In this document: piece by piece, positions 13,981 through 36,416 of the stretch
How positions within the stretch are numbered: the stretch's first letter is position 1
Layout of the letters: every line of letters starts with the position of its first letter
Origin: Gammaproteobacteria bacterium
GTDB lineage: Bacteria > Pseudomonadota > Gammaproteobacteria > GCA-001735895
NCBI GenBank assembly: GCA_050295575.1
Contig: JBNKPX010000006.1
Span: forward strand, 1 to 60,999
Direction of reading: 5' to 3'
DNA length: 60,999 bases
Made by a program: the position numbers and the translations under genes
Notes under the pieces: model-generated
The model's database searches: none
What the model saw: only the letters and a program-made list of their open reading frames with translations
What the model was told of the DNA's origin: nothing

Positions 13981-14039
13981 AAAGTCAATTCATACACAGT
14001 TTGGATAAGGTAAACATTAAAACCGTGAGGTACGGAAAA

Positions 14040-15350: not shown

Positions 15351-15361
15351 TTTAGGAGAAT

Positions 15362-16807: not shown

Positions 16808-16817
16808 GAGAAACAAA

Positions 16818-19205
16818 ATGAAACGTTCAATCATATCCGCCGCAATTCTGGCTGCTATGGGTTTAGGTACGGCAACATCTGCCTCCGCTCTTACACTGGA
16901 TCTGTGTGCTGGAGAATTCGAGATAACCTCTCAGTCTATAGATGGTAATACTACGCCGATTAAAATGTGGGGTTATGCGCTGGGAACCATGACTGCTGGT
17001 GCCTCTGCCAGTGGCATGGTTTGTGTCAATAAACCGACTGCGCCAGGTCCGCGCATAACGGTCCCTGTGGGTGATCCAGAACTGGTGATTCATTTGCATA
17101 ACGCTTTACCACGAGCTACCTCTTTGATTATTCCTGGCACGGTAAAGGTTGGTGCGAATGCAATGACTCCTGTTTTCTTTACCGATAACAAATTAAACCA
17201 GCGGGTCCGTTCGTTTGATAAAGAAGTAGCACCGGCAGGCATGGAAACCTATAGCTGGTCAAACCTCCAACCCGGAAGTTATATGTATCAATCGGGAACG
17301 CATCAGCAGGTTCAGGTTCAGATGGGGCTTGCTGGCCCTGCGACCAAGGACTTTGCTGCGGGTCAGGCATATGCAGGAGCCAATTCTGTATACGCACAGG
17401 ATACCCTGTTGATCTATAGTGAGATCGATCGAGTGATCCATGATGGAGTGGCTGCTGGCCAATATAACGAGAGTGATATGCAGAGCACGGTGCACTATGC
17501 ACCCAAGTACTTCAACCTGACGATTGTCAATAATGGGTTGACTGGTTCAGCATTGTTCAATGATGTGCTGGTGTGGAAGATGCCACCAAATCAGCGTCCA
17601 TTAGTGCGTATGTTTAATGCCAGTAGCAAGATTCATGTACCTACGGTACTGGAAGCCGGTTTTGACGTGATTGCTGAAGATGGCAAGCAATATCCTAATG
17701 TGCATAAGGAATATGCGGTTGCCCTGCCTCCGCTGAAAACCAAGGATGCATTTTTGAATATCACTGGTGAAGGCTTCGCTTTTGGACCATTTTTTCCACC
17801 CGTTGGGTCATCCTTCCGCCTGACTGATGCAGCGATGTCGGTGAGTAATCCGATACCAGCTACCGGGGCGGTATTAGCTCTTGCTGAGCATCATGAAATC
17901 GCTAACGGCAGTGACAACGGTATGGTTGTTCATATCGAGATCGAACCTCAGCCAGGCTATAGCAGTACTACACCATTGACCGATGCAACTATGATAGCCA
18001 GGCGTGATGAAGCTCAGGTCGATGAAGGTGGAATGGTTAATATCAATGTCGTTGGCAATGATTTAAATGCTACTGGTGCCGTGTTGACTGTCACTTCTGC
18101 ACCCAAGCATGCTGAAAGCTATACCATCAACGGTGGAACTATCAGTTATCAGCATGATGCAACTGAAGCGGGCAGGGATTCATTGATCTACACACTCACC
18201 AAAGGTACAGAGGTTTCATCTGCTGCTGTGGTGATTGCAGTGAATTCATCCAACGATGCGCCTATAGCAAATCCTGATAGCGCTACAGTGAAAGTGGGTC
18301 AAACTGTTGAAATCCGTGTAACGGATAACGACACCGACGCGGACTCACGAGAGCTTAAGGTTCTATCAGTTGATGCTAGTGGTTTAAGCAATGCCCAGTT
18401 AGTCAGCTTTGTTGATAAAGCAATTACCGTAACCGGTGTTACTGCGGGCGATGCTGAAACAATGAGCTACGTGGTATCGGATGGTGACGGTGGTTTAGCT
18501 ACCGGTCAGCTAACGCTCTCAGTGGTAGACGCAACTAGCGGTACGGGTGGTATCTATGGTAGTGGCAATAATGGTAGCGGAACGGGTGCTGGTACGACCG
18601 GTAGCAAGCCTGAAACCAATGAAGACAAGTTCGAAGTGCATGAGCACGGTATCTACAGCACCGTGGGTAACAAGATCCTGGGTGTACTGGCGAACGACAT
18701 CGAGAATGGCGGTAAGGTAAGTCCTACTCTGGCTATCTACCCTGAGCATGGTTCGGTTGAAATGTTTGAAGATGGTACTTTCGTGTATACGCATGATGGT
18801 TCCGAATCTAGCGAAGATGGCTTTACCTACGAGGTTTACAATGACTTTGGTTCCACCAAAGGCGAAGTGGAGATCAAGATACTGCCTAAAATGGATCCAC
18901 CAAGAACCAATAATGACAAGGCTAGAACCAATGTGGATACACCAGTTACTATCGATATCCTGAGAAATGACAAGGATAAAGATAGCAACAAGAGAGCAGC
19001 AACTATTGTGATTGATGTCTCTAGTGTATCTCCTGGTGCTAAAGTTGAGGTAGTAAATCAGAGGGTTGTCTACACTCCTGCACCCGGTTTCTCCGGTAGA
19101 GACAGTTTTAAATATAGTCTGAAAGACGATAAAACTGGAGAGGCATCACATCGATCTGCAAGGGTTAGTGTGAAAGTGAAAAGCCATCATAAACATGACG
19201 ATTAA
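16818..19205 (+). CDS. Ligand-less cupredoxin chain C fused to tandem Ig/cadherin-like repeats
   Basis: Sec signal. The MCO scaffold is recognisable (PGPRITV, GSYMYQSGTHQQVQVQMGL) but lacks HxH/HCH motifs. Four repeats of the P-x-x-N-x-D...NDxD...DSFxY type. C-terminus HHKHDD. Confidence 0.8.
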   Translation: MKRSIISAAILAAMGLGTATSASALTLDLCAGEFEITSQSIDGNTTPIKMWGYALGTMTAGASASGMVCVNKPTAPGPRITVPVGDPELVIHLHNALPRATSLIIPGTVKVGANAMTPVFFTDNKLNQRVRSFDKEVAPAGMETYSWSNLQPGSYMYQSGTHQQVQVQMGLAGPATKDFAAGQAYAGANSVYAQDTLLIYSEIDRVIHDGVAAGQYNESDMQSTVHYAPKYFNLTIVNNGLTGSALFNDVLVWKMPPNQRPLVRMFNASSKIHVPTVLEAGFDVIAEDGKQYPNVHKEYAVALPPLKTKDAFLNITGEGFAFGPFFPPVGSSFRLTDAAMSVSNPIPATGAVLALAEHHEIANGSDNGMVVHIEIEPQPGYSSTTPLTDATMIARRDEAQVDEGGMVNINVVGNDLNATGAVLTVTSAPKHAESYTINGGTISYQHDATEAGRDSLIYTLTKGTEVSSAAVVIAVNSSNDAPIANPDSATVKVGQTVEIRVTDNDTDADSRELKVLSVDASGLSNAQLVSFVDKAITVTGVTAGDAETMSYVVSDGDGGLATGQLTLSVVDATSGTGGIYGSGNNGSGTGAGTTGSKPETNEDKFEVHEHGIYSTVGNKILGVLANDIENGGKVSPTLAIYPEHGSVEMFEDGTFVYTHDGSESSEDGFTYEVYNDFGSTKGEVEIKILPKMDPPRTNNDKARTNVDTPVTIDILRNDKDKDSNKRAATIVIDVSSVSPGAKVEVVNQRVVYTPAPGFSGRDSFKYSLKDDKTGEASHRSARVSVKVKSHHKHDD

Positions 19206-19407: not shown

Positions 19408-21192
19408 ATGATTCGAAATATTCCAACATATAGTAGTTTTGAAGATCTGTCGAAAGAAGATATGAGCGCAGAGAATCCAGCAACTGAAAGCGGTCAGAGT
19501 TTTTTATTCCCTGATGATGAGCTTCAGTTTGTTCAGTCATTACATGCAAAATCCATCCTGTCGAAAGGCGATCTCAAGAAAATAGAGATGCTGCTTAAGT
19601 CAGGCAAGACCGATCTTTCGGTTGTCCAGTTAGTTTTAAGTTTAGGTCTGATATCAGAAAGTGATTTGCTCAATCATCTTTCGTCATTAGGTCGTATGCG
19701 CATTCTACAGCCTGAAGATTATCCTGATGAGCTTTATGCGAGGGCTACTTTTAATGCGCAGTTTCTCAAGCAGTATCAGATGGTAGTGATTTCTGACTCC
19801 GATGAGATCATGGAAATCTGTATTAATGATCCCTTTGCGCGTGGTCTGCAGCAGGCACTTTCCTTTGCTATCGGTAGCAAATTTCTAAAAATTCGTCTTG
19901 GTTTTAAAAAGGATATCGAAGAGGCGCTGGAGCGTATTCTGATGACCAAGGCCGAAGCATTTTCGAATGATAAATTCGATGAGATAGACGCCGTATTACT
20001 GGATCGGGATATACAGCAACTAAAAGAACTGGCCAGTGAAGCGCCGGTTATCAAGGTGGTTAACACCATTATCAAGGAAGCAATTCTAAAGAATTCTTCG
20101 GATATACATCTAGAGCCACAAAGCCATCAACTTAAGGTACGTAATCGTATCGATGGCGTTTTAATTACAGTACGTGAGGTGCCGGTCAACATGGCGGCGG
20201 CTGTCGTATCCCGTATCAAGATTCTGTCAGATCTGGATATTGCCCAGCGCCGAGTTCCGCAGGATGGTCGATTGAATATGAATATCGACGGTCAGGATGT
20301 GGATATCCGTGTTTCCATTATGCCGACCATTCATGGTGAAAGTGTTGTACTCAGGTTGCTGTACAAGAAATCGATTAACTTTGATTTTAACAGCCTGGGC
20401 TATTCAGAATATAACCAGAGTCGTATCTTCCAGATGCTGAATAAGCCACATGGCCTGATTCTGGTGACTGGCCCAACGGGAAGCGGAAAATCAACTTCCC
20501 TGTATGCGATGCTGCAACAGATTAATGATTCGGAAAAGAAGATTGTTTCGGTAGAAGATCCTGTCGAATACAAGATTGAAGGCATAAACCAGGTTCAGGT
20601 TAACCCCGAGGTTGGGGTGAGTTTCTCCAATGCCCTAAGAGGTATTGTGCGACATGATCCGGAAGTGATTATGGTGGGTGAGATGCGTGACTCGGAAACC
20701 GCAGGCATTGCCATCCGTGCCTCCATGACCGGGCATTTAATTCTTACTACCCTGCATACCAATACGGCTATCTCAAGTATTGATCGTCTGATGGATCTGG
20801 GTGTGGAAAAGGCGTTTGTATTTTCTGCCCTGATCGGTGTGGTAGCGCAAAGACTGGTACGGAAACTATGTGATCAATGTAAGGTGCCAGTGCAGTCTTC
20901 TTTGATTACATTACATACAGAAACTGGAGATGCCAGCATTACAGATCAGATGGGTTGTTACGAGCCGGTAGGCTGTGAGCATTGTAATGGCACCGGGTAT
21001 AAAGGTCGTTTATCGATCTGTGAAGTGATGATATTAAATGATGATTTTCGCTCCGAGGCTTTGTCTGGTCACAGCAATATGCAACAACTGGCCTGGAAGC
21101 ATGGCATGCGCCCGATGGTGGTCGATGGGTTTGAAAAAGTAAAATCGGGACAGACGACTGTTGACGAATTGTTCCGCATGGTTCTGGAGTAA
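19408..21192 (+). CDS. gspE: Type II secretion ATPase GspE (start may be 19462)
   Basis: Walker A GPTGSGKST, EDPVEY, RHDPEVIMVGEMRD, TLHTN, and tetracysteine motif CDQC/CEHC. Confidence 0.93.
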   Translation: MIRNIPTYSSFEDLSKEDMSAENPATESGQSFLFPDDELQFVQSLHAKSILSKGDLKKIEMLLKSGKTDLSVVQLVLSLGLISESDLLNHLSSLGRMRILQPEDYPDELYARATFNAQFLKQYQMVVISDSDEIMEICINDPFARGLQQALSFAIGSKFLKIRLGFKKDIEEALERILMTKAEAFSNDKFDEIDAVLLDRDIQQLKELASEAPVIKVVNTIIKEAILKNSSDIHLEPQSHQLKVRNRIDGVLITVREVPVNMAAAVVSRIKILSDLDIAQRRVPQDGRLNMNIDGQDVDIRVSIMPTIHGESVVLRLLYKKSINFDFNSLGYSEYNQSRIFQMLNKPHGLILVTGPTGSGKSTSLYAMLQQINDSEKKIVSVEDPVEYKIEGINQVQVNPEVGVSFSNALRGIVRHDPEVIMVGEMRDSETAGIAIRASMTGHLILTTLHTNTAISSIDRLMDLGVEKAFVFSALIGVVAQRLVRKLCDQCKVPVQSSLITLHTETGDASITDQMGCYEPVGCEHCNGTGYKGRLSICEVMILNDDFRSEALSGHSNMQQLAWKHGMRPMVVDGFEKVKSGQTTVDELFRMVLE

Positions 21193-21194
21193 TT

Positions 21195-22388
21195 GTGTAT
21201 AAATACCAGGCCTTGAATAACAAGGGGGAGTTTGTTGAAGGAGAGTTAAGTCTGTCCAGCGAAGAGCGGGTTGTGGAAGAATTGCTCAAACTTAATTATG
21301 TTCCCATCAAGGTTAGCAGCGTAAAACCTGAAAAAACTATTTCTCTCAAACTTTCCATAAAAGACAGGTTTGAGGTCCAGCAGTTTTTTGAAAATCTCTA
21401 TGATTATCTGGATTCAGGTTTATCTATCGATAAGGCGTTGGAGCTAGAAGCCAGAGGTATGGATCACTCAAGCGGGCAGGACATGATCGTCGAATTACTC
21501 GATCAGGTTCGTCAGGGAGGCAGCCTTTCGGAAGCGATGAAATCGCAGCCTGAATATTTTACTTCTTTGCACACGGGTATTGTTCAGGTAGGTGAAGAAA
21601 CCGATTCGCTTACTGAATCGTTCCAACTACTTTCTTCACTCATCAGTGATCTCAATGAGTTTAAGCAAAAGATAAAATCCGCGCTGGTTTACCCGATGAT
21701 CCTGACTGCTGTCATGTTTCTCTCCATCCTGATTTTATTTGGTCTGGTGATACCGCGCTTTGAAGCTTTATTTGTCAGTATGGGTATAAAAATGGAAGGT
21801 TTAACCGGCTTTATCGTCGGTATATCGAATGTATTGACCGAACAGTATCAACTGCTGCTGATTGCTTTACTGGGGATCATTATGTTGATGCGTAACCTGG
21901 CTGGTCGATTTAAGCAGGATATAAAATTTACCGGTTTTTTGCTCAGTCTGCCCATGATTGGTGACATGATTAAGCAATATAACCTGTATCTGATTTCGAG
22001 GATTCTTTCGATACTGCTGGCAAAGAATATTACCGTGCTGAAATCGCTGGAATATGTCAGGGATGCTATCGCGAATCTTGTATATAAAAAAGAGATAGAC
22101 AGCATGGCCCTTGAAATCAATAAAGGGACAGCAATGAACAATGTGTTTAGTAGCAGCTTATTCAGTCAGCATTTCATTTATATTGTCACCATAGGTGCAG
22201 AAACAGGACGCCTTGCCGAATCATTTTCCAAGCTTGCGAAGTTTTACTATAAACAGCTGGATGTTCGTATCAGGGCACTAATGGTTTATGTAGAGCCCAT
22301 CATTATCATGGTACTGGGCCTGGTGGTCGGTATGATAGTGGTGACTATGTTGCAGGCTATTCTCAGCATCAATGAGTTGGTAGTTTAG
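21195..22388 (+). CDS. gspF: Type II secretion inner-membrane protein GspF
   Basis: GspF/PilC pattern VGEE...KIKSALVYP and GAETGRL...EPIII, with three TM segments. Confidence 0.92.
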   Translation: MYKYQALNNKGEFVEGELSLSSEERVVEELLKLNYVPIKVSSVKPEKTISLKLSIKDRFEVQQFFENLYDYLDSGLSIDKALELEARGMDHSSGQDMIVELLDQVRQGGSLSEAMKSQPEYFTSLHTGIVQVGEETDSLTESFQLLSSLISDLNEFKQKIKSALVYPMILTAVMFLSILILFGLVIPRFEALFVSMGIKMEGLTGFIVGISNVLTEQYQLLLIALLGIIMLMRNLAGRFKQDIKFTGFLLSLPMIGDMIKQYNLYLISRILSILLAKNITVLKSLEYVRDAIANLVYKKEIDSMALEINKGTAMNNVFSSSLFSQHFIYIVTIGAETGRLAESFSKLAKFYYKQLDVRIRALMVYVEPIIIMVLGLVVGMIVVTMLQAILSINELVV

Positions 22389-22441
22389 TAATTCTATATG
22401 GCTGCAGACGGTGTTAATTTAATCAAAGAACTGGAAAAGAA

Positions 22442-22861
22442 ATGAAACAGAGAACAGCAGGTTTCACCCTGGTCGAATTACTGGTGGTGTTAATTATTCT
22501 GGGGCTGGTTGCGAGTATTGCAGGCCCTAATGTTATGAAGTATCTGGGCAGTTCAAAATCTAAAACTGCCAGGCTACAGTTAAAGGAGATTGAGTCATCC
22601 GTCGAGCTTTTTTTCCTCGACACCGGACGCTATCCACCGAATGATCCGGGACTGAAGGCTCTGGTTAATAATGATGCTTCGATTGCGGGATGGAGTGGTC
22701 CCTATTTCAAAAGTGGACAGATTCCGCTTGATCCCTGGGGTAACAATTACCTGTACCTGTCACCCGGAGAGCATGGGCCTTTCGATCTGATGAGCCTGGG
22801 AGCTGATAACCAGCCAGGTGGTGAAGGTGATGACAAGGATGTGACTAACTGGGCGCAATGA
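22442..22861 (+). CDS. gspG: Major pseudopilin GspG
   Basis: G|FTLVELLVV prepilin motif, DTGRYP, DPWGNNY, SLGADNQPGGEGDDKDV. Confidence 0.96.
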   Translation: MKQRTAGFTLVELLVVLIILGLVASIAGPNVMKYLGSSKSKTARLQLKEIESSVELFFLDTGRYPPNDPGLKALVNNDASIAGWSGPYFKSGQIPLDPWGNNYLYLSPGEHGPFDLMSLGADNQPGGEGDDKDVTNWAQ

Positions 22862-22862
22862 T

Positions 22863-23303
22863 ATGCGTAAAACCGGCTTTACTCTGGTTGAAGTTCTTGT
22901 TGTTCTAACCATAGTTTCGGTGGTGGTCGGATCTATCAGTTATGTCGTCATTGGTGGAGGAAATGATTTAAAGTCAGTGTCTCAGGATATTGTTCAGTCA
23001 ATGCGACTGTTACAGCAAAGATCCATACGCGATGACAGGCCCTACCAGATCGAGATCGATCTGAATGCCAATACTATCAGTTTTCTGGAAAAGGAAATTG
23101 CTATCCCTGAAGCTTTTTCTGTCACGGTAAAAACAGCTGCAAGTCAGGTAATAGAGGACAGGCTGGTCGGTATGACCTTTTTCCCCGATGCAAGCTCTAC
23201 CGGAGGTTCGATTGTGCTGGAATCGGATAAGGAAGCCTATGAAATAATGGTGGTCTGGATTTCTGGAAAAATTCAAACCAGCTACCGTAGTAAATCTTCC
23301 TGA
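22863..23303 (+). CDS. gspH: Minor pseudopilin GspH
   Basis: G|FTLVEVLVV, FFPDASSTGG, and position after gspG. Confidence 0.85.
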   Translation: MRKTGFTLVEVLVVLTIVSVVVGSISYVVIGGGNDLKSVSQDIVQSMRLLQQRSIRDDRPYQIEIDLNANTISFLEKEIAIPEAFSVTVKTAASQVIEDRLVGMTFFPDASSTGGSIVLESDKEAYEIMVVWISGKIQTSYRSKSS

Positions 23304-23692
23304 TGAGAGGCTTTAGTTTGTATACCCATCACGCCACCTCAAATCATCAAAACGGTATGACGCTACTGGAAGTGATGGTGGGTTTTGTGATCTTTAGTGC
23401 ATCGCTGGTAGCTATTCTGGACTATGTGTCCAATCAGATATATCTGAACCATTTAACAGAAAAAAACCAGCACAAAGTTCGTCTGATTTATGACTATTCC
23501 CTGACCCAGGAGATGGGGGTAGATGCGCAGCAGTCTTTTGCATCAACCCTGACCGATTTCAATCTTTCATTTGATTCGACGGTTATAGATTCCTTCGAAA
23601 GCAGAAGAGGGAATATGGTGTTAACTAAAACCATAATCTCTGTTGAGGACGGGGGCAGTTCCTATGACTGGTCTATCTATGAAATTAACTAG
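23303..23692 (+). CDS. gspI: Minor pseudopilin GspI
   Basis: G|MTLLEVMVG prepilin motif and gene order. Confidence 0.75.
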   Translation: MRGFSLYTHHATSNHQNGMTLLEVMVGFVIFSASLVAILDYVSNQIYLNHLTEKNQHKVRLIYDYSLTQEMGVDAQQSFASTLTDFNLSFDSTVIDSFESRRGNMVLTKTIISVEDGGSSYDWSIYEIN

Positions 23693-23701
23693 CAGGATAG
23701 T

Positions 23702-24313
23702 GTGGGCCAGATGAACCTCAGACCCTCAGTATGCATAAAATCAGGACAGTGTATTCAGCAAGGTTTTACGCTGGTTGAAATGCTGGTTTCGCTGGTACTT
23801 AGTGCAATTATATTTGTCAGTGCTTACCAGGTAATCTCCAACCTGATCCAGTATCAGGTTCGTTATAACGAAAATAGTGAAAGGCAGATGGATCGCCTGT
23901 TGCTGAGAAGTATGATTGGCCAGATTTTAAGTAAGGGGCTACATCAGTCTGATCTTTATTTTAAGATACAGAAAAATCCATTTTTTAAAGGTAATTCGGA
24001 TTCCATTCAAATTATCTCAAGAGCATACAGTGATCATTTTGATGTGCCTGGATATCGCATTTACAGTCTATCGGTAAATAACAATGAATTGTTTGTCAGT
24101 TATAAGCGTTTTGATGAAGAGTCGGTATTTGGTGAAGCGGTAAAGCAAACCAGTGGTATCAGAATAGAGAAGATAGGTTTTAGATATTATCTTGATGGCG
24201 AATGGCTGGATCGATGGAGTCAGGTAGATAGCATTCCAAAGCTGGTAAAAGTAATCATAACCCTGCCTGATAATAATACCTTTGAATGGGTCAATCAGAC
24301 AGGGCAGGCATGA
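23702..24313 (+). CDS. gspJ: Minor pseudopilin GspJ
   Basis: G|FTLVEMLVS and the C-terminal W-x-D-R-W...PKLVKV pattern. Confidence 0.8.
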   Translation: MGQMNLRPSVCIKSGQCIQQGFTLVEMLVSLVLSAIIFVSAYQVISNLIQYQVRYNENSERQMDRLLLRSMIGQILSKGLHQSDLYFKIQKNPFFKGNSDSIQIISRAYSDHFDVPGYRIYSLSVNNNELFVSYKRFDEESVFGEAVKQTSGIRIEKIGFRYYLDGEWLDRWSQVDSIPKLVKVIITLPDNNTFEWVNQTGQA

Positions 24314-25125
24314 TGTTTGTACGGCGCACAAGAAGATGTAGTCAGGGCTCAATTTTGCTGTATGTGTTATGGATTCTGGTGGTTATATCAGCACTTGCTT
24401 TTAAATTATCTTCTGCTTCCAGAGTGGTCATGACCAAACAGGTTTCAGAGGTCAGTCAGATCAAAAAAAAACTGCAACTAAGATCTGCAATACAGTTCGC
24501 CCGCTTTAAAATAAACAGTAATAATTGGGAAAATATAAAATTTGAACAAAATTTGAACGACCAGCGGATTTCTATACAGATTTATAATGAATCCGGCTTT
24601 GTCTCGCTCTATGATCTGAGTAGTCAGTCACTAAAAAATGTACTCGATAGCGCTAACATAAGCAGCGATGGTCTGGGTGATTTTAAGTATCTGGTCGAAG
24701 AAAAAAATCTGCGGTTTAATGACTTTGCAGAGTTAACCCAGTTTGAAGGTATAACAGAACAAGAGGTGAACGCGTTAATTCCTTATGTGAGTATCTACCA
24801 TGAGGATGCAGTTAACCCAGACAAGTCTCCGGCATCGGTTTTATTGAAGCTAGAAGGCGTTGACCAGTATCGGGTGAATAAAATAATAGAAAGCACTGAT
24901 GCGGAAGAAAAAAAGGTGCTCAGGAAGGAGGTTGTAGAGATTCTTAAGTCGCATAATTTTGCCACCTCCGAGAATGAAACTAATTATTTTCGCTTACACA
25001 TTTCGCTAGATTCCCGTTTATACAGGGTATTTCTACGATATGACCGGCGCAGTAAAGGTTTTGTTGTGGTGAATATGATTTCCCCGGTTGATATCTCCAG
25101 GGAAGTTCTGGATAAGTCATCCTGA
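24310..25125 (+). CDS. gspK: Minor pseudopilin GspK
   Basis: G|SILLYVLW (no Glu at +5, as is typical of GspK), NESG, and the FAELTQFEGI helix-hairpin segment. Confidence 0.8.
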   Translation: MMFVRRTRRCSQGSILLYVLWILVVISALAFKLSSASRVVMTKQVSEVSQIKKKLQLRSAIQFARFKINSNNWENIKFEQNLNDQRISIQIYNESGFVSLYDLSSQSLKNVLDSANISSDGLGDFKYLVEEKNLRFNDFAELTQFEGITEQEVNALIPYVSIYHEDAVNPDKSPASVLLKLEGVDQYRVNKIIESTDAEEKKVLRKEVVEILKSHNFATSENETNYFRLHISLDSRLYRVFLRYDRRSKGFVVVNMISPVDISREVLDKSS

Positions 25126-27507: not shown

Positions 27508-29027
27508 GATATTTGTTTTCCCTTTTCCTGTTGTTGCTGGTATTTCAACAATCCTTTGCGATGAGTGAAGGTGAGTCGATTTACATGACCGGCATCGATG
27601 CACAGGGAAACAGGGTGCCTGCGGTACTTAATGATCTGGCTTCGGATTCAGCGCTGGGCTGTGTCAACTGTCATCGCGAATCCGGTCTTGGTAGCTCTGA
27701 ATCAGGACGTACCTATCCCCCTGTTTCCTGGCGTTTTCTGGGGCGCAACCAGCCGGAGGATGATTCTTCACGCTTTTATCATATACAGAATAAACGTAAG
27801 GCCTATGACGCAGATAGCTTTTATCGCTTGCTGACTACAGGCATAAATTCCAATGCTGAGGTAGCTGATGGCCTGATGCCAAAATATGCGTTAACCCGTC
27901 AGCAAAGCGATGAGTTGATCGCCTATCTTAAGACCATTAATAGCAGCGACGATGCTGGCGTAGATGGCGATGTGATTCGTATTGCCACTATTGTGGATAA
28001 GCGTTTACCCGAGTTGGAAAGAGAGCAGCATATTGCTTTTTTACAAGGTTTGTTTGAGATGAAAAACGGACTGACTCGAGGAGAGTTACGACGTAAAGCT
28101 CATTCCCCGGTACAGAAGATTCCTCAGTATGAGTCATTCCGAAATTGGGAGCTGGTGGTTTGGGAGTTGCCGGAAGATACTGCGCTATGGTCAGTCAAAC
28201 TGCAGGAATACTATCAACAGAATCCGGTTTTTACTGTGCTTCGACCGATGGTAGAAGATGACTATGCAATAGTAGGCGAGTTCTGTACCAGCAATAAACT
28301 GAGCTGCTTCTTCCCTTCGGGTAAAAACCTGCCCGCAGGTGATTTTTATAATTTCGTATTCCGTAATAGTGAAAAGCAGCAAGTCGATTATATCGCAAGT
28401 CAACAGCGAAAATTCTCGGGGCGTTTGCTGTATATCGATCAGAAAGGAGATATACAGAGGCTGACTTCTTCGATGACGAATATCCCAGTAGCAGAAAATA
28501 TATCCCTGGCTGAGCTACAGACCCAGTATGCCAGTTATTGTACCGAAGAAGCTGTGCTTCTGCTTAAGGCAGATATAGATCGTGCATCTGTATTGGAGAG
28601 GCTTAAATGTCCGCTTGATGCAAAATTGATTATCAAGCTAATACAGGGTGACTCTATCAATTATCGCTCGATAGTTGATTTTATGCGGGAGAATCCAGCT
28701 AGCCAGGTTTGTTGGATTAGTGATTATGCTAAGGTTTTAAAACGTAATTTTCGTAGAATAAGAGTCAATGCCATGGTGAGTCGGTTTAACATCAAGAATC
28801 CTGATGAGGAAGAGCTGGCAAAAACTTTGTTTGCTTATGGCCTGTTCAGCGATTCGCTGCATAAGATGGCGGGTAATTTTTCAAGAATTTATATGATAGA
28901 AATCATAGAACATATGCTCAATAGTTTTCTGAATTACACGTATTTTTCCTCTATTAGCGGAGCGCCTTATCAGCGATATATAGTCGGACCTTTAGAGGAA
29001 TACTGTCCAGCAGGTGAGAGAGAGTGA
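27504..29027 (+). CDS. Exported monoheme c-type cytochrome fused to an uncharacterised C-terminal domain
   Basis: Signal peptide, CVNCH heme-binding motif, MPKY (candidate axial Met), LIAYL helix, and ~350 further residues. Confidence 0.8.
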   Translation: MRYLFSLFLLLLVFQQSFAMSEGESIYMTGIDAQGNRVPAVLNDLASDSALGCVNCHRESGLGSSESGRTYPPVSWRFLGRNQPEDDSSRFYHIQNKRKAYDADSFYRLLTTGINSNAEVADGLMPKYALTRQQSDELIAYLKTINSSDDAGVDGDVIRIATIVDKRLPELEREQHIAFLQGLFEMKNGLTRGELRRKAHSPVQKIPQYESFRNWELVVWELPEDTALWSVKLQEYYQQNPVFTVLRPMVEDDYAIVGEFCTSNKLSCFFPSGKNLPAGDFYNFVFRNSEKQQVDYIASQQRKFSGRLLYIDQKGDIQRLTSSMTNIPVAENISLAELQTQYASYCTEEAVLLLKADIDRASVLERLKCPLDAKLIIKLIQGDSINYRSIVDFMRENPASQVCWISDYAKVLKRNFRRIRVNAMVSRFNIKNPDEEELAKTLFAYGLFSDSLHKMAGNFSRIYMIEIIEHMLNSFLNYTYFSSISGAPYQRYIVGPLEEYCPAGERE

Positions 29028-30553
29028 AGGTAAATATTCTCCCCATAGCCGGTAAGTATTTTAACTGGTGGACTAGCACGCTTAAATCCTGCCTGCCTGC
29101 CCCTGCGCATAAGTTATTTAAAAAATATAACCGGGATGTGGAACTGATAATCCAGCATCAGAAAGATGGTATCTATTTACAGGATGGTAGCGGTCGAGTG
29201 ATCGATTCAATCTCAACCATCGATATTGATGATGACAATAATGAAGGCCTGGATGTCAACCTGTTCGAGGCGCAAGGGGAGGAAGAGGCTGAAGTCGATG
29301 CTACTCATAGAGGCCTGTACGATCGTACGGAGGTTATTCATCATGATTTCAAGAGAAGGGAGCCAGCTATATCAGAAAATGAGTTGGACGAAGTCGATCT
29401 GACCATCGATAACGATGCCACCATTGTGCTCAACAGGGATGATAAAACGGTACGTTTACTGGGCCAGGTTTCAGAGGATGATACCATCGTGATTCAGGAT
29501 GATCAGGGAACCCTGCTGAATCTGGATTCGGACTCATCGACTGGACAGGATGGGGATAGTACCGTTCTGTATTACAGTGATCGAGGTAGAATTCGTGCTG
29601 TAGAGGCTAAAAAAGATCCTGCACTTGAACAGAATATTGATTTCAACCTGTTAACGGATAATCCGAAGAAAGAAAAACAGGAAGCTACGGGAGAAGATTT
29701 TAATCTGGCAGCCGGGTTGCTATCGAAATATCCAGGAAATAAAAAATGCCTGTACCTGATTCCTGATGACCAGATTTTTTCACTGGTCTTGAATTACCCG
29801 GTAGAGGTGCTGGAAAATATTGAAAATGTATTACGTTATGATCTGGAAAAACATATACCACTAAGCTTTCAGGAGATACGTTTTTTTTATGCCTTAAATA
29901 TCAAGTCAGGCACAGGAAAGGTGGATGTGGAAGTCATTGTTATCAAGTCTACAGTGTTTGATTTGCTAGAGTCAGCGTTTGATTCTGAACGTCAGCGCGA
30001 AATTATTTGTACAACCCGCTATTTCTATCAGCACTACGGCACAAAAATAAATATGCTGGGCAATCGTAAGGGTGAAAGCCGCAATACATGGTTGACTGTG
30101 GGGAATATGCATACAGCAATTAATGTCATTCTGCTGCTGGGTGTGTTTGTGCTGCCTTATCAGTTGCATTATAGCCAATTGGCTGAGATTCAACCAAAGT
30201 CAAGTGCAGAGATTAGTAAGGCTGGAAAAATTGTTTCGACCATTAATCAGCTAAATGCTGAGATACAAATCGGTGAGAAATTAAATACGCAGATCAGTAA
30301 GGATCGCCGTATGGTGGAATTGCTGGCTCAGCTGAGTGAGCATATTGCAACGGATGCCTGGATATCGAGATTTAGCTATAAAAATGGTGAGCTCAAACTG
30401 AAAGGTGAAGCAGTTTCTGCAACCAGTGTATCAGATGATTTAAATAACACAGGATTATTTGAAAGCATCAAGTTTATTTCGTCGATAATTAAAAATCCAA
30501 ATACGAAAAGGGAGGCTTTTGAGCTGTCGCTAAAAGTAAAGTCTGATGCATAA
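29024..30553 (+). CDS. gspL: GspL/PilN-like T2SS component with an acidic insertion
   Basis: Xps-type N-terminus FNWW...L...LP, central LRYDLEKHIPL, a TM segment and a PilN-like C-terminal domain. Confidence 0.78.
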   Translation: MKVNILPIAGKYFNWWTSTLKSCLPAPAHKLFKKYNRDVELIIQHQKDGIYLQDGSGRVIDSISTIDIDDDNNEGLDVNLFEAQGEEEAEVDATHRGLYDRTEVIHHDFKRREPAISENELDEVDLTIDNDATIVLNRDDKTVRLLGQVSEDDTIVIQDDQGTLLNLDSDSSTGQDGDSTVLYYSDRGRIRAVEAKKDPALEQNIDFNLLTDNPKKEKQEATGEDFNLAAGLLSKYPGNKKCLYLIPDDQIFSLVLNYPVEVLENIENVLRYDLEKHIPLSFQEIRFFYALNIKSGTGKVDVEVIVIKSTVFDLLESAFDSERQREIICTTRYFYQHYGTKINMLGNRKGESRNTWLTVGNMHTAINVILLLGVFVLPYQLHYSQLAEIQPKSSAEISKAGKIVSTINQLNAEIQIGEKLNTQISKDRRMVELLAQLSEHIATDAWISRFSYKNGELKLKGEAVSATSVSDDLNNTGLFESIKFISSIIKNPNTKREAFELSLKVKSDA

Positions 30554-31148
30554 TCTTTTCGGCAACCAGAATGTAGATAAAATTATCGCCCTGACGATAC
30601 TGGCGCTATTGTTGGTGATATCATATTTGCTGTTTTCCAATCTATATCTTTCAGGGTTGAGTGAGCTTAAATCGGAGATTGAATTGAGCCGGAAAAAAAC
30701 CGGTAAAGTGGATGGTATTCTTGCTAATGAAAAAAAATATCAGCAGGAAATTAATAAGATAAAAAGTGAGTATAAGCAGTCGAGAAATTTTCTAAATAGC
30801 AATCAGCCGTCTACTGCTTCATCAGAAGTTCAAAATAAAATCAAACGTATTATTAATTCTACTTCCAGGGCAAAAATTATCTCGCTGAAACCGTTTCCGG
30901 TGATACAGCATGAGGGATATAGTGAAGTGTCTGTTGAGATTCGTATGAAGGATATAGGACACAAGGAAATCAGGAAAATGCTGTATGCTATTGAAAGTCA
31001 ATTACCGCTGATTATCATCAAGGAGCTGGATATCACGCGTACGCAGTATTCCTACAAATCAATTCTTGGTGCTGCGGCAAAAGATAAAAATGATTTAAAT
31101 GTTACTCTGGTGGCGAGTGGGTTTTTCAGGGGGGCACGTAATCAATGA
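30546..31148 (+). CDS. gspM: T2SS protein GspM
   Basis: N-terminal TM segment, coiled coil, LYAIESQLPLIIIKEL, and position after gspL. Confidence 0.8.
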   Translation: MHNLFGNQNVDKIIALTILALLLVISYLLFSNLYLSGLSELKSEIELSRKKTGKVDGILANEKKYQQEINKIKSEYKQSRNFLNSNQPSTASSEVQNKIKRIINSTSRAKIISLKPFPVIQHEGYSEVSVEIRMKDIGHKEIRKMLYAIESQLPLIIIKELDITRTQYSYKSILGAAAKDKNDLNVTLVASGFFRGARNQ

Positions 31149-31173
31149 GAACCGAAGTCAGGCGACCTAAGCC

Positions 31174-31629
31174 ATGAAATTAATTTTCTCAGCAATTATG
31201 CTCGTGGTTATTGCTTTAGTGTATCTTTACCTGGCTGATTCATTATCAGAAAAACCAACAGTCACTCATGAATTAAATCTTGATTTGGGTAAATCCCGGG
31301 CTGCTGTCAAGAAGCTGGAAAGTATCAGTCATTATAATTCGATTATTGATCGACCATTATTTGTTGAAGAACGACGATTTGAAGAAGAAAAAAAGCCGGT
31401 AACAATCGTCAAACCTGTGGCAGTTATTGAAAAATTAAATGTTAAGGCTTTGGGTATTGCTCTTTCTGGTGAAGGGCTCATAGCCGTTTTGACCGATAAA
31501 AAAAATGGGAAAACCTTAAGGATGAGAATAGGTGAAAAAATCTACGGGTGGACCTTGAAGGGCGTTTCAGAATCCAGTTTTACTTTTTCTAAGGGTGGAA
31601 AAGAAAAGGTGGTTAATTTTAAAGAATAA
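31174..31629 (+). CDS. T2SS GspC/N-like protein
   Basis: TM anchor, IDRPLF...RR motif, GE-x-I-x-GWTL. Lies between gspM and gspD. Confidence 0.65.
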   Translation: MKLIFSAIMLVVIALVYLYLADSLSEKPTVTHELNLDLGKSRAAVKKLESISHYNSIIDRPLFVEERRFEEEKKPVTIVKPVAVIEKLNVKALGIALSGEGLIAVLTDKKNGKTLRMRIGEKIYGWTLKGVSESSFTFSKGGKEKVVNFKE

Positions 31630-31641
31630 TGGGGGGGGACC

Positions 31642-33738
31642 ATGTTACGTGTTAATAAGAAAAAGCATATTAGATGCATATTTACAATAGGGCTAATATC
31701 CTTATTTACATTTTTATCGGGCTGTTCAACGCCTAACGGTCCTACTTATAAGGTGGAGGTTAATGCAGCAGGGGTTCCAGAAATTATCACTTATAATGAT
31801 AAGGGAGAGAGGGTCGCTGATGGGGCCAAAACTAATTCACTGGGTGCAGTGTATAAGTATGGGAATGGAAAAATTGTAAATGCTCCATCAAAAAGGAACT
31901 ATAGCAAAAAAGCTGGTGAGTACAGTCTGGACTTTGTGAAAATTGCGATTGAAGAATTTCTCTCTATCGTATTTAACGATATGCTCGGGAAAAACTATAT
32001 TCTGGACAGTACCATCAAGGGTGAGGTGACGGTTCAGACCAAAGGTCGGGTGAATGCTACCCAGTTGCTCTCTATCGTTGAAAGTGTACTGGCTTCCAAA
32101 AATGCGGTCATGGTCAGTAAGGATAACCACTATGAATTTATACCTCTGAGCAAAGCCAAAAATTACTCCTTAAAACCTGAACTATACAGTGCCAGGAATC
32201 TGGAAGCCGGTTTCAGAATGGTCATCATCCCGGTTAACTATCTGAATCCGGATGATCTTAAGCCTATTCTGGACTCTGTTGCCCCCGGCGCAGGCCATCT
32301 TAAGATTGATAAGGCGCGACGGGCCGTCGTGATGACAGGTACCGCACAGGAAATAGAGAATGTTGTCAATGCAGTACAGATCTTCGATGTCAGCTGGCTG
32401 GCGTCGAAATCGGTTGCATTACTGCCCGTTATCAATACACAGGCTTCAATTGTCCAGAAAGAAATTGTCAAAATTCTGACTAGTCAGAACAAGGATAATA
32501 GCATCGTAATTGATACCTTTGAGCGCTTTAATGCACTACTGGTAGTTGCAAGCAAGAAGAATGAGGTTGAAGCGGTTAAAAGATGGCTAGATGTGCTGGA
32601 TGTTGAAGTGCCTACCGCCGATACCCAGTTATTTGTATATAATGTTCAAAATCGAAAGGCCAGTGAGCTGGCTGATATGTTGAACAGTATTTTTGGTGAT
32701 GCTCCTGCTGGGATAGTTGCACCTGGTAATGCAGGTAAAACTAACACTGTTTCCAACAAGGAAGTGGTTGTCAGTAATAAAACCACCGCTTCTAAGGTAG
32801 CTGCCAGAAAGGTGAGTGCTCAGTCTTCTGGCTCTAATCTTAAAATTGTTGCGGATGAAACCAATAACGCAATCGTAATCCTGGCAAAGAAATCTGAGTT
32901 CGACAGCATCAGGAAGGTCCTCAAGGACCTCGATACCCTGCCGCTTCAGGTCCTGATAGAGGTTTCTATTGTTGAAGTAACGTTAACCGATGAGTTAAGT
33001 TATGGTCTGGAGTGGTATCTGAAAAAGAATGGTGTTAGCGGCGGTAAGTATGACGTTGAATCAACTCTAGATGTGAACTCAGGTTCTGGAATTGGACCTA
33101 TATCGCCAGGATTATCCTTGCTGCTGAGCGGTACTGGAACCTTAGTGGATGCAGTGTTTAATACACTTGCTGCGGAATCAAAGTTGAATGTGATCTCCAG
33201 TCCATCATTAATGGCGCTGGATAATCATACCGCGACTATCCGCGTCGGTGATCAGCAACCAGTCCAGGTTTCTGCTGCCAAATCAACAAACAACGATGTT
33301 TTGACGCAGTCGATAGAATATAAGAGTACGGGTGTGTTATTGTCTGTAACACCCAGAGTGAATTCTGGTGGCCTGGTCACAATGGAACTGAGTCAGGAAG
33401 TGACTGATGTGGGTAGTATTGATGATGCTACCGGTCAGCGCAGCTTTTTGCAGCGCAATATCAATAGTACAGTAGCAGTGCAAAATGGCAGAACGATTAT
33501 ATTGGGTGGTCTGATTACGGAAAATGCCAGTAATGGTGAGAGTGGTATTCCTGGGTTACATAATATTCCTTATGCCGGAGGCCTGTTTGGTAAGACCTCA
33601 AGCTCCAAAATAAAGAGAGAGCTGATCGTGCTGATTACGCCTAAGGTCATTTTCAATCATCAGGATGCACTGGATATCACTCAGGAGTATGCTGAAAAAA
33701 TGGAATTACTAAAATCATCTCTTGATGTTAAACAGTAG
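31642..33738 (+). CDS. gspD: T2SS secretin GspD (predicted lipoprotein)
   Basis: Lipobox LSGC, N0-N3 domains, secretin motifs QVLIEVSIVEV, IPGLHNIP...GGLFG and ELIVLITP. Confidence 0.95.
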   Translation: MLRVNKKKHIRCIFTIGLISLFTFLSGCSTPNGPTYKVEVNAAGVPEIITYNDKGERVADGAKTNSLGAVYKYGNGKIVNAPSKRNYSKKAGEYSLDFVKIAIEEFLSIVFNDMLGKNYILDSTIKGEVTVQTKGRVNATQLLSIVESVLASKNAVMVSKDNHYEFIPLSKAKNYSLKPELYSARNLEAGFRMVIIPVNYLNPDDLKPILDSVAPGAGHLKIDKARRAVVMTGTAQEIENVVNAVQIFDVSWLASKSVALLPVINTQASIVQKEIVKILTSQNKDNSIVIDTFERFNALLVVASKKNEVEAVKRWLDVLDVEVPTADTQLFVYNVQNRKASELADMLNSIFGDAPAGIVAPGNAGKTNTVSNKEVVVSNKTTASKVAARKVSAQSSGSNLKIVADETNNAIVILAKKSEFDSIRKVLKDLDTLPLQVLIEVSIVEVTLTDELSYGLEWYLKKNGVSGGKYDVESTLDVNSGSGIGPISPGLSLLLSGTGTLVDAVFNTLAAESKLNVISSPSLMALDNHTATIRVGDQQPVQVSAAKSTNNDVLTQSIEYKSTGVLLSVTPRVNSGGLVTMELSQEVTDVGSIDDATGQRSFLQRNINSTVAVQNGRTIILGGLITENASNGESGIPGLHNIPYAGGLFGKTSSSKIKRELIVLITPKVIFNHQDALDITQEYAEKMELLKSSLDVKQ

Positions 33739-33759: not shown

Positions 33760-34407
33760 ATGAAAATTAAATCAGTTTACATCGCAGACACCGAGACAAT
33801 CTTCACTGACTGCCTGGCAACCAGTCTGGAGCTGACTCAGCAGTTTGAAGTGATTGGTATTGGCAGTAGTGGTTCGACGGCTTTTAACGAGATTCGCGAG
33901 AATATTCCTGATCTTGTCATAACCGATTTAAATCTGGGCGCATTGAGCGGGATTAACCTGATACGCAAAATCAAGGCTAGCGGGCTGCCTTCGAAAATTA
34001 TACTGTTATCTTCTGATATAACGCCACCTGTTATCCATAAGGCTCTGAGTGCGGGTGTGGATGGCATTATTCTGAAGTATGACCATTATTCCTTACTGCT
34101 TGAAGCGATCAGTGTTATCCACCAACGCAAATTTCTCAGTCCTGGTATATCCGATCCATTAGTGAATAACTTTCTGAGTTTTAATAGTGGGTCGTCTGAT
34201 CATAACAAGGTTTCCCCTCTATCTGATAGAGAGGAGCAGGTGGCAAAATTAATCGGCGATGGTATTAGTAGTAAAGAAATAGCGGAAGTGCTTTCGATTA
34301 GTGAGAAAACGGTCAGTAAGCACCGCAGTAATATCTTTAAGAAGTTACAGATTAAAAATACTGCCCAGCTGGTTAAGTATGTTTATGACAATAATCTGGT
34401 AGGTTAG
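33760..34407 (+). CDS. NarL/LuxR-family response regulator
   Basis: Receiver domain with PDLVITD. LuxR HTH LSDREEQV...ISEKTVSKHRSNIFKKL. Confidence 0.93.
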   Translation: MKIKSVYIADTETIFTDCLATSLELTQQFEVIGIGSSGSTAFNEIRENIPDLVITDLNLGALSGINLIRKIKASGLPSKIILLSSDITPPVIHKALSAGVDGIILKYDHYSLLLEAISVIHQRKFLSPGISDPLVNNFLSFNSGSSDHNKVSPLSDREEQVAKLIGDGISSKEIAEVLSISEKTVSKHRSNIFKKLQIKNTAQLVKYVYDNNLVG

Positions 34408-34459
34408 AACTTATTGATTTATTCGTCTTTGACTATGCAGTCGTAATTCTGAGAAAAAT

Positions 34460-35143
34460 ATGAATATATTACTTGTCGAAGATAATCATGACCTTGCGCT
34501 CAATGTAACGGAATTTTTTGAGAGAAAAGGTCATATCATAGATTACGCTGCGGATGGTCTGTCAGCATTGAATCTGGTTTTAAGGCAGACCTATGAGGTT
34601 ATTATTCTGGATGTCATGTTACCTGGTATGAATGGACTTTCTTTTTGCCAGCAATTACGTGAGCATTACGAACTTGATACGCCGGTCATTATGCTGACCG
34701 CCAAAGATACCGAAGAGGATAAATTAAAAGGATTTAAAGTGGGTACAGATGATTATCTGATAAAACCATTTTCACTGCCCGAGCTGGAAGCTCGCCTGCT
34801 ATCATTAATCCGGCGCAGTAACCGCCAGTTATTCGGTAAGAAAAAACTGATTGTTGAAGATCTGGAGTATTCACCGGACACTATGAAGCTAAAGCGTGGT
34901 GGTACCGAATTGTCCTTAAAACCAATCCCATTAAAAATCCTCATTATCCTGATGCAAAACTCTAACCGAGTGGTCACTCGGCAGGAGATTGAACAGCAGG
35001 TATGGAATGATGAGCCTCCCGATAGTGAAGTGTTACGCTCACACATCTATGCAATCCGTAGTGAAGTTGATAAAAAAGGCGATAAAAAGTTGCTTCAGAC
35101 TATTCGCGGTGTTGGCTACAGGCTCGCCATTGATGAGAGTTAA
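34460..35143 (+). CDS. OmpR-family response regulator, ColR-like
   Basis: ILLVEDN, ILDVMLPG and DDYLIKPF, with winged helix PPDSEVLRSHI...TIRGVGYRL. Confidence 0.92.
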   Translation: MNILLVEDNHDLALNVTEFFERKGHIIDYAADGLSALNLVLRQTYEVIILDVMLPGMNGLSFCQQLREHYELDTPVIMLTAKDTEEDKLKGFKVGTDDYLIKPFSLPELEARLLSLIRRSNRQLFGKKKLIVEDLEYSPDTMKLKRGGTELSLKPIPLKILIILMQNSNRVVTRQEIEQQVWNDEPPDSEVLRSHIYAIRSEVDKKGDKKLLQTIRGVGYRLAIDES

Positions 35144-36416
35144 GTACAAACTGCATAGTCGCATAGCGCGGAAAATGCTCTTCCTTGCAGTTTTATCGAC
35201 TATTGCTTATTCAGTCTTTGTTGTCATGTTGGTGAATCGGCTGGAGCTCCTGATGGTGACCACCTTGCTGGGCCATGAGGCTTCTGAAATGGTCGTCGAG
35301 TTACAGCATAATCCCGATATTCCGATGCCTAGATCTGCATCGATACAGGCATACCGATTGAGCGAAGATAATACCATTCCTATTCCGCAGTATTTAAAAA
35401 AGCTCGATTATGACGGTTATGTAAAGGTAGAGCATCAAGACAGAAGTCATCATGCTACCGTGGTAGATCTGTTAGATGATCGTATCTATATTTCATTTGA
35501 TACTACCGATATTAATAAGACATTAGCGCTGTTACAGGCGATTTTGATTGGTGGCGGTTTCATCTTTGTCATTCTAATATTCGCCAGCTGGTTCTGGTTA
35601 ACCAAAAAGTTTGTCGTGCCAGTTTCTACGCTGGCTGAAGAAGTGGCCTCTCTGGATCCCAATGTGCGTAATATTCGCATCGAAGAAGGCTATAAGGATT
35701 ACGAGGTTGGCATTATAGCGCAATCTTTCGATCAGTTTCTGATACGTATGGATGAATTTGTTGAACGAGAGCAGTCCTTTTCGGCAGCTATCAGTCACGA
35801 GTTACGCACACCGGTTTCAGTTATTGCAACGGCACTAGACCTGCTGGAGCTGGATGGTGTTACCGAGCAGCAACAAGGGGTAATTAACCGTATACGCTTC
35901 TCAACAAATTATATGCAAAAAATGATAGAGTCACTGCTGTTTTTTGCCAGAAATTCGGATGAAAAGCTTGCTATCTCCTTGAAAAAAATCAGCCTGAAAG
36001 AGGTATTTGAAGAAACGCTTACCCAATATAAGGATCAGGCAAGCATTAAAAAATTAGACCTGCTGCTAGAAGTGGAGTTTGATACCGAAATCAGAATGGT
36101 AGAGAACCATATTCAAATTATCCTGGGTAATTTAATTCAAAACGCAATCAACAATACCACCGTTGGCAGTATTCAGGTGGTGCTTAAACAGGATGGTTTT
36201 TGTGTCATAGATACCGGGCATGGTATCGGTAGCAATGAAACCGATCTGGTAGTTGAGCGTTGCTATCATGGCCCGGATAGTGATGGCTGTGGACTAGGTC
36301 TCTATCTTGTGATGAAAGTTTGCAAGGTGCACGGGCTTGATTTAAAAATAGACAGCCAGCTGGGGCAGGGTTCCAGTTTCTGCGTTACCTTTCCGCGACA
36401 GCTGATTGTTCAATAA
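35133..36416 (+). CDS. Sensor histidine kinase, ColS-like
   Basis: Two TM segments, HAMP domain, H-box SHELRTP, N-box NLIQNA, G-boxes DTGHGI and GLGL. Overlaps the stop codon of the response regulator. Confidence 0.92.
   Translation: MRVKYKLHSRIARKMLFLAVLSTIAYSVFVVMLVNRLELLMVTTLLGHEASEMVVELQHNPDIPMPRSASIQAYRLSEDNTIPIPQYLKKLDYDGYVKVEHQDRSHHATVVDLLDDRIYISFDTTDINKTLALLQAILIGGGFIFVILIFASWFWLTKKFVVPVSTLAEEVASLDPNVRNIRIEEGYKDYEVGIIAQSFDQFLIRMDEFVEREQSFSAAISHELRTPVSVIATALDLLELDGVTEQQQGVINRIRFSTNYMQKMIESLLFFARNSDEKLAISLKKISLKEVFEETLTQYKDQASIKKLDLLLEVEFDTEIRMVENHIQIILGNLIQNAINNTTVGSIQVVLKQDGFCVIDTGHGIGSNETDLVVERCYHGPDSDGCGLGLYLVMKVCKVHGLDLKIDSQLGQGSSFCVTFPRQLIVQ

Follow-up and report, generated by a model that had tools for sequence, protein, structure and literature searches.

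We analyzed a 60,999-nucleotide window (contig JBNKPX010000006.1 of assembly GCA_050295575.1) from an uncultured sulfur bacterium of the Gammaproteobacteria and identified a new conserved triple hairpin-like repeat, without a match in Pfam, in an XpsL-like GspL. The repeat lies in an acidic insertion (residues ~65-220, 29216..29683 on the + strand) of a GspL-type assembly-platform protein of a type II secretion system (T2SS) encoded at 29024..30553 on the + strand; the limits of the insertion were drawn from model confidence (pLDDT), composition and relatives that do not have it. The reading that we favor, at a little short of an even chance, is that the insert is a lineage-specific, phospho-independent hairpin module for binding or folding that was added to a minimal GspL of the XpsL-like kind. 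The sequence-only reading of the window had seen in the insert the possible docking sites of a phosphothreonine (pThr) switch, read by an FHA protein whose gene lies at 6596..7441 on the - strand, and we weigh the two accounts below.

The open reading frame (ORF) codes for 509 aa and opens with a GTG codon that overlaps the stop of the upstream gene. By its modeled fold and its gene context, the product is assigned to GspL as a divergent, XpsL-like branch. Its sole Pfam match was PilN (PF05137, residues 433-505, E 1.3e-6), and an Amuc_1101 PilM-like match was weak (17.6 bits vs a cut-off of 650); unlike canonical GspL, it matched none of the curated GspL models (Pfam T2SSL and GspL_C, NCBIfam) at E <= 0.01. 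The folded cytoplasmic core in the AlphaFold2 model consisted of residues 37-64 plus 221-348, an actin-like/RNaseH-like domain resembling that of EpsL and GspL in the fold comparison. Residues 37-348 matched cyto-GspL 4pht_Y (Z 10.2, rmsd 3.1, 144 aligned of 226), 1yf5 (Z 9.7) and PilM 5eou_B (Z 8.5), and Foldseek gave E values of 1.4e-4 to 3e-3 for the cytoplasmic part. A single transmembrane helix (residues ~359-387, 30098..30184, + strand; helix 359-387 in the model, peak 19-residue hydropathy at 359) is followed by a periplasmic ferredoxin-like domain, according to model and fold match, with residues 427-506 matching PulL 5hl8_A (Z 10.2) and XcpY 6ghu_A (Z 9.7). The gene adjoins gspM inside a cluster with gspD, E, F and G-K, and this order was kept in all four other contigs examined. 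The protein is thus like canonical GspL (EpsL, XcpY, PulL) and the short XpsL-type GspL in its cytoplasmic and periplasmic folds and its single transmembrane helix, and in the position of its gene before an XpsM-type gspM in a full T2SS cluster. It differs from both in the ~155-residue acidic insert with three hairpin-like units, where the ~360-aa relatives have a short connection.

All seven of the Asp-x-Thr motifs on which the sequence-only reading rested were present in the translation of 29024-30553: DATHRG (residues 92-97), DRTEVI (100-105), DLTIDN (125-130), DATIVL (131-136), DKTVRL (140-145), DDTIVI (152-157) and DSTVLY (178-183), with their Thr at residues 94, 102, 127, 133, 142, 154 and 180. 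The 168 residues from 59 to 226 held 45 Asp or Glu and 16 Lys or Arg. When the composition of this segment was permuted 20,000 times, the pattern D.T, found 7 times, had a shuffle mean of 1.99 (p 0.0009), and D.T..[ILVMFYW], found 5 times, had a mean of 0.53, with 1 of the 20,000 shuffles reaching 5. The best of five AlphaFold2 models, built on an alignment of 38 sequences, had pLDDT below 50 across residues 70-217, and the segment was predicted to be disordered. A Pfam search with the insert alone at E up to 10 returned DUF6209 only (E 0.06-0.095), which gave no family assignment, and a protein-cluster search with residues 120-200 yielded nothing usable (best score 0.75, unnamed short clusters). 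A TonB-box-like reading of DDTIVI was rejected because the insert precedes the single transmembrane helix and is thus on its cytoplasmic side.

As judged from the alignment, the insert is a true insertion, as the sequence-only reading had supposed; it is conserved in 38 homologues and absent from the ~360-aa relatives. According to alignment and model, it enters the actin-like cytoplasmic domain behind the third beta-strand, presumably where EpsL, PilM and FtsA carry domain II or 1C. In relatives of ~345-390 aa the third strand passes straight to the next helix with nothing between; these shorter proteins share with the insert-bearing ones the first strands as well as an invariant WW...LP helix at the N-terminus. 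The N-terminal W15-W16 ... P25 (29024-29128) was invariant in 15/15 sequences, comprising insert-bearing proteins and seven sampled ~360-aa relatives. A profile search of 1.84 billion representatives retrieved 20 proteins at E <= 1e-30 and 727 at E <= 1e-10; among the matches listed, those from about E 1e-26 downward were mostly 345-390 aa long, and their match to the profile began only at about position 240. The insert was entirely missing from one close relative, P0051 (349 aa, E 1.3e-83), and forms of 457-483 aa had a shorter insert that retained the last unit. The existence of insert-free relatives, P0051 included, indicates that the insert is an added function and is dispensable for the platform itself.

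We aligned 38 homologues of 34-73% identity (39 hits minus P0027, a 328-aa fragment) and identified three conserved 16-residue units within the insert, all encoded on the + strand. Unit 1, DATIVLNRDDKTVRLL (residues 131-146, 29414..29461), contains T133 and T142 and is 14-16 residues long in the 38 sequences; D/E occupied position 1 in 35/38, T position 3 in 32/38, and F/L stood three residues after the Thr (+3) in 32/38. Unit 2, DDTIVIQDDQGTLLNL (residues 152-167, 29477..29524), contains T154, Q161 and G162, and was conserved at T (36/38), I at +3 (34/38), Q161 (36/38), G162 (35/38) and L at position 13 (34/38). Unit 3, DSTVLYYSDRGRIRAV (residues 178-193, 29555..29602), was the most constant, with T180, G188, Y/F at +3 and a length of 16 in 38/38 and I at position 13 in 34/38. 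The units follow the consensus D-x-T-hyd-hyd-hyd-x-x-D-x-G/K-x-hyd-x-x-hyd, in which position 1 is D/E, position 3 is T, position 9 is D, position 11 is G or K, and positions 4-6, 13 and 16 are hydrophobic. Their median length was 16, and they were separated by linkers of 0-7 and 5-13 residues. From their sequence they can be read as strand, tight turn and strand, and they look like beta-hairpins.

These boundaries changed the picture of the seven motifs as so many separate sites. T133, T142, T154 and T180 were conserved (in 32, 35, 36 and 38 of the 38 sequences), but T94 (12/38), T102 (10/38) and T127 (19/38) were poorly kept. DKTVRL in turn is no unit of its own, since it forms the second strand of unit 1. 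Conservation at this level also bears on the idea of a neutral insert, an acidic spacer or an expansion of low complexity without a specific function. That idea draws on the acidic composition, on flanks of variable length, with an N-terminal linker of 35-106 residues, and on the close relative that lacks the insert. However, it is contradicted by the conservation, as T180 and G188 are invariant, T142, D153, T154, Q161 and G162 are at least 90% conserved down to 34% overall identity, and orthologues down to 31% identity retain the units or their [DE]-x-T-hydrophobic heads, unit 3 included. We regard a neutral spacer as very improbable.

In the hairpin module that we favor, each 16-residue unit would form a beta-hairpin with a tight turn carrying Asp and Gly, and the hairpins would pack on each other, on the units of neighboring GspL copies or on the beta-sheet of a cytoplasmic partner. 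The acidic linkers of variable length would act as flexible tethers, and Asp-x-Thr would be a structural start-of-strand motif that needs no phosphate. The most likely partner would be the ATPase GspE, as it is the best-known partner of the cytoplasmic part of GspL. The FHA protein would then work mainly in regulation, together with a LuxR-type regulator. Several observations agree with this account. Unit lengths are fixed while the N-terminal linker varies, and conservation reaches beyond Thr and +3 to the turns (D9, Q161, G162, G188) and to the second strands. The only strands that AlphaFold2 placed in the insert (154-156, 183-186 and 189-192) fall inside the units, at low confidence, and the flanking core of the model matches cyto-GspL and PilM with the Z scores given above.

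The same features would also fit a small beta-sheet domain of unrecognized fold, in which the hairpins fold alone or, beneath the membrane, across several copies of GspL. In keeping with such a domain, there are six strand-like segments that are fixed in length and have a conserved turn Gly and Asp; AlphaFold2 would have missed it owing to the shallow alignment of 38 sequences. The D-x-T-hyd-x-hyd and L-Y-Y-S-D patterns recall what we take to be the strand motifs of WD40 or YWTD propeller blades. On the other hand, pLDDT stayed below 50 over residues 127-217 in the best of the five models, the inter-unit linkers vary in length, and nothing in Pfam up to E 10 resembled the insert except DUF6209 at E 0.06. 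We consider such a domain unlikely.

The FHA protein of the sequence-only reading proved to be real. Its gene (6596..7441, - strand) encodes 281 aa with a cyclase-like N-terminal domain (residues 1-160), a disordered linker and an FHA domain at 175-280 (PF00498, E 2.3e-10, 41.2 bits over a cut-off of 20.7). FHA domains recognize pThr, in many cases with a preference for I/L at +3. The residues of the pThr pocket, GR 198-199, SRxH 213-216 and NG 234-235 (G198, R199, S213, R214, H216, N234 and G235), were invariant in 12/12 orthologues. The protein was modeled with a pLDDT of 84.8, and the FHA domain matched the fold of 6ccd (Rv1747 FHA-1). The N-terminal domain (6962-7441) is, according to its model, a class III cyclase fold; it matched 4wp9_A (E 9.7e-8, TM 0.69 on target) and many adenylyl and guanylyl cyclases, and no Pfam cyclase family matched it at E <= 0.01. 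Class III cyclase domains dimerise. A paralogue at G000:C4:55498-56403 starts with a FADVAGST-type canonical cyclase motif, and in the module copy the sequence near the start is another one that contains no Asp (residues assigned by eye); this copy seems to lack the first metal-binding Asp. In the linker, predicted to be disordered at 164-172, D165-x-T167 was invariant in the 12 orthologues. GarA and OdhI are FHA regulators with an internal pThr site, and here too a disordered segment that holds an invariant Thr comes before the FHA domain. The protein differs from the GarA/OdhI type in its class III cyclase fold and in the residue at +3 after T167, which is not hydrophobic.

The intact pocket gives weight to a pThr-dependent account. 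A Hanks kinase encoded elsewhere would phosphorylate at least one of the Thr that head the units (T133, T154, T180), and the FHA protein would dock on the phosphorylated Thr, thereby gating or localising the T2SS. We consider this possible and rather doubtful. Within it, the FHA protein would probably be dimeric through its cyclase-like domain, and by analogy with GarA/OdhI the D165-x-T167 linker could be a competing internal site. Put as a function, and held just as tentatively, the T2SS would be gated by Thr phosphorylation, with a dimeric FHA adaptor reading up to three GspL sites multivalently. Such gating, on which we would likewise not count, would make the export of metal-oxidising multicopper oxidases responsive to a cellular signal, with the D-x-T linker as internal competitor. 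In each unit the Thr has an acidic residue before it at -2 and a large hydrophobic one after it at +3, and Ser replaces the Thr of the unit heads in only 0-2 sequences. Strictly conserved [DE]xTxx-hydrophobic motifs, counted in five genomes over the 23 proteins of the conserved gene module to which both genes belong, were most numerous in GspL, with three within 40 residues, followed by two in an 1855-aa exported protein, one each in GspF and GspD and none in the other 19. A predicted complex of FHA residues 175-281 with GspL residues 122-200 scored 0.00 in two runs, which gives no verdict, and was counted neither way. The pThr account leaves unexplained that turns and second strands are conserved to an extent that exceeds what an FHA pocket reads.

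We surveyed 78 genomes of the order to which the window belongs for co-occurrence of the two genes. The insert-bearing GspL was found in 11, and a full-length FHA orthologue (E <= 1.9e-60) in 12, namely those 11 and G008; all 11 genomes with the insert thus have the FHA gene, a co-occurrence that the sequence-only reading had proposed as a check. The two genes lay on one contig in 6/11, ~22 kb apart and in the same arrangement, and on separate contigs in 5/11. The FHA orthologue was found in 0/5 genomes with insertion-free GspL relatives, which showed only paralogues of 24-27% identity at other places; of the 18 matches in this part of the survey, 2 were from genomes flagged unpublished. Paralogues of 23-31% identity occur in most genomes of the order, 71/78 having some match, and ~300-aa paralogues that span the cyclase-like part through the FHA domain are present in most of the 78. 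The co-occurrence is nevertheless tied to the whole module of 23 genes and not to the insert in particular. Since the block is inherited together, it does not constitute independent evidence that the insert is a target of the FHA protein.

Two genomes depart from the pattern and weigh against pThr docking. G008 (86% complete) has an FHA orthologue (46% identity) that keeps the pocket and T167, but neither the GspL variant nor the cytochrome-c-like neighbor was found there with the queries used. At locus L118 (C78, 10600-12301) of this genome the FHA orthologue lies directly upstream of an orthologue of the LuxR-type regulator (69% identity), on one strand. This arrangement suggests that the two products are a regulatory pair in their own right, and the occurrence of the pair in a genome where the GspL variant was not found points to a regulatory role of the FHA protein. 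Next to the pair lie two-component genes, likewise a pair, and genes for a dihaem cytochrome c, DUF1924 and a cytochrome b561; T2SS genes are absent there. In the second genome, G057, the FHA gene is represented by a fragment of 78 aa, and no insert-bearing GspL was found. In addition, only a giant ORF follows beyond the FHA gene in G065 and G066.

A pThr switch also needs a kinase. The genome has 14 Pkinase (Hanks), 7 FHA and 4 PP2C matches, which answers in its favor the search that the sequence-only reading had called for. None of the 14 Pkinase or 4 PP2C_2 matches is on the contig of the window, in agreement with its remark that the window holds no Ser/Thr kinase, and neither a kinase nor a phosphatase is among the 23 conserved module genes. 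We compared 13 kinase ORFs of G000 across a small sample of same-genus genomes, two with the module (G071 and G066) and two without it (G064 and G068). Not one of the 13 occurred in the two positive genomes while missing from the two negative ones, and four were common to all four. The phosphothreonine switch thus kept part of its footing, as the insert is conserved, the FHA gene co-occurs with it, the pocket is intact and kinases exist in the genome. It lost ground through the module without kinase or phosphatase, the lack of a kinase that tracks the module in this sample, the hairpin-wide conservation and the exception of G008.

The kinase results agree with the phospho-independent hairpin module, against which several points have to be set. 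The Thr at position 3 is stricter (38/38, 36/38 and 32/38, with Ser in 0-2) than the start of a strand needs. If the T2SS apparatus and the two-component regulators are left aside, all module proteins but the FHA protein have signal-peptide-like N-termini as judged by eye; apart from T2SS parts and DNA-binding regulators, the FHA protein is therefore the one cytoplasmic protein specific to the module, a point that counts in favor of pThr docking. The insert always travels with the FHA gene in the order. The link between insert and GspE is a prediction from the general biology of GspL. Hairpin formation stays a prediction because pLDDT of the insert is below 50, and the analogy with domain II of canonical GspL is weak because the insertion-free parent family works without a domain at that place.

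To our knowledge, no post-translational control of T2SS assembly is known. Full-text literature searches, judged at the level of the search results, returned nothing that linked FHA or pThr to GspL or the T2SS platform. The closest precedent for pThr docking, by analogy, is the T6SS (type VI secretion system) of Agrobacterium tumefaciens, in which, according to the portion of the source at hand, PpkA phosphorylates Thr14 of TssL and Fha binds pThr14 (Lin et al. 2014, via PMC5995506). Both cases have an FHA gene in the cluster and an inner-membrane platform protein whose cytoplasmic N-terminal region has an acidic-x-x-Thr-hydrophobic site, and the pTssL site DLPpTVVEI (same excerpt, PMC5995506) is of similar flavor to the units. 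The system described here differs in being a T2SS with three repeated 16-residue units instead of one site, in its FHA protein with a cyclase-like N-terminal domain and in its phosphosites, which are predicted. Unlike T6SS clusters, which in that excerpt encode a kinase and a phosphatase (PMC5995506), the module has neither, which counts against the analogy. FHA proteins also accompany other machines of the type IV filament superfamily, such as the Tad-like Kil apparatus of Myxococcus xanthus with many FHA-domain proteins (PMC8460266) and the archaellum, whose regulatory network includes an FHA protein and kinases (PMC5300886); the authors, in the sections drawn on, took such proteins as a sign of a phospho-signalling cascade (PMC8460266, PMC5300886). 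The machine types differ from the one here, the Kil ATPase itself carries an FHA domain, and the same sections mention no docking site on a protein of the GspL type.

The conserved module comprises 23 genes (6596-36416), from the FHA gene to a histidine kinase. All 23 keep their order in 4/4 other contigs examined, and G074 alone was found to have the flanking genes, which makes the FHA gene the module's left end. Past it, a giant ORF on the opposite strand exceeds 2500 aa in G065 (L057, 1137-8771, -) and 1500 aa in G066 (L058, 423-4994, -), and both ORFs run off the contig. A SCO1/SenC copper chaperone gene (7470..8057, - strand) shares the strand of the FHA gene and lies 28 bp upstream of it. 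The 1855-aa protein and, after it, three multicopper-oxidase-like proteins are encoded at 8413..19205 (+ strand) and have signal-peptide-like N-termini by eye. The first of them (8413-13980) has such a start and 52-61% identity in four other genomes, and no Pfam family matched it at E <= 0.001.

The genes of GspE, GspF, GspG and the pseudopilins H-K follow at 19408..25125 (+ strand). GspE (19408-21192, 594 aa) scored under the GspE and PilB equivalog cut-offs, and its sole Pfam match was MshEN at residues 102-180, with ~100 residues N-terminal to the match. Residues ~40-95 (within 19408-19950) resemble by eye a second MshEN-like helical unit, and conservation in G065 and G066 does not extend to the first 31 residues. 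Around the insertion-free GspL relatives in G436, G178 and G236, GspE was not found within the stretches examined. Between the pseudopilins and gspL lie three further genes, whose products are an exported protein of 149 aa, an S8 protease that carries a Calx-beta domain and a cytochrome-c-like protein of 507 aa. GlyGly-CTERM-like tails mark T2SS cargo that is processed by rhombosortase. The S8 subtilase (25621-27507) ends in a tail of GG, hydrophobic and basic residues, with a weak SVAGG GlyGly-CTERM match (E 1.2e-4, 21.2 bits) below the cut-off of 150.

Downstream of gspL, the region 30546..33738 (+ strand) encodes an XpsM-type GspM (NF040576, 77.7 bits over a cut-off of 60), an XpsN-like protein (only 22 bits) and the GspD secretin (TIGR02517, 415.8 over 351.35). 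The right end of the module (33760..36416, + strand) encodes a LuxR-type response regulator, an OmpR-type regulator and the histidine kinase. The histidine-kinase ORF as called (34989-36416) starts with TTG and overlaps the gene of the OmpR-type regulator by 155 bases, and the true start is probably further downstream. A comparable gene set has been described for the Mn-oxidase loci of Pseudomonas putida GB-1 and relatives, which, in the part of the report consulted, hold SCO1/SenC genes and a two-component system beside the mnxG/mcoA multicopper oxidases and have a second T2SS that is dedicated (PMC13689576). The module here likewise joins multicopper oxidases, SCO1/SenC, two-component regulators and a dedicated T2SS; it differs in its FHA protein and GspL insert, neither of which is mentioned in that part of the report (PMC13689576).

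Should the units be docking sites, phospho-dependent or not, they would show how a minimal GspL gains a new cytoplasmic partner, and they would give a handle on how a dedicated multicopper-oxidase T2SS is switched on. Even conservatively, they constitute a compact conserved repeat that matches nothing in Pfam, has a defined place in the GspL fold and is testable with peptides.

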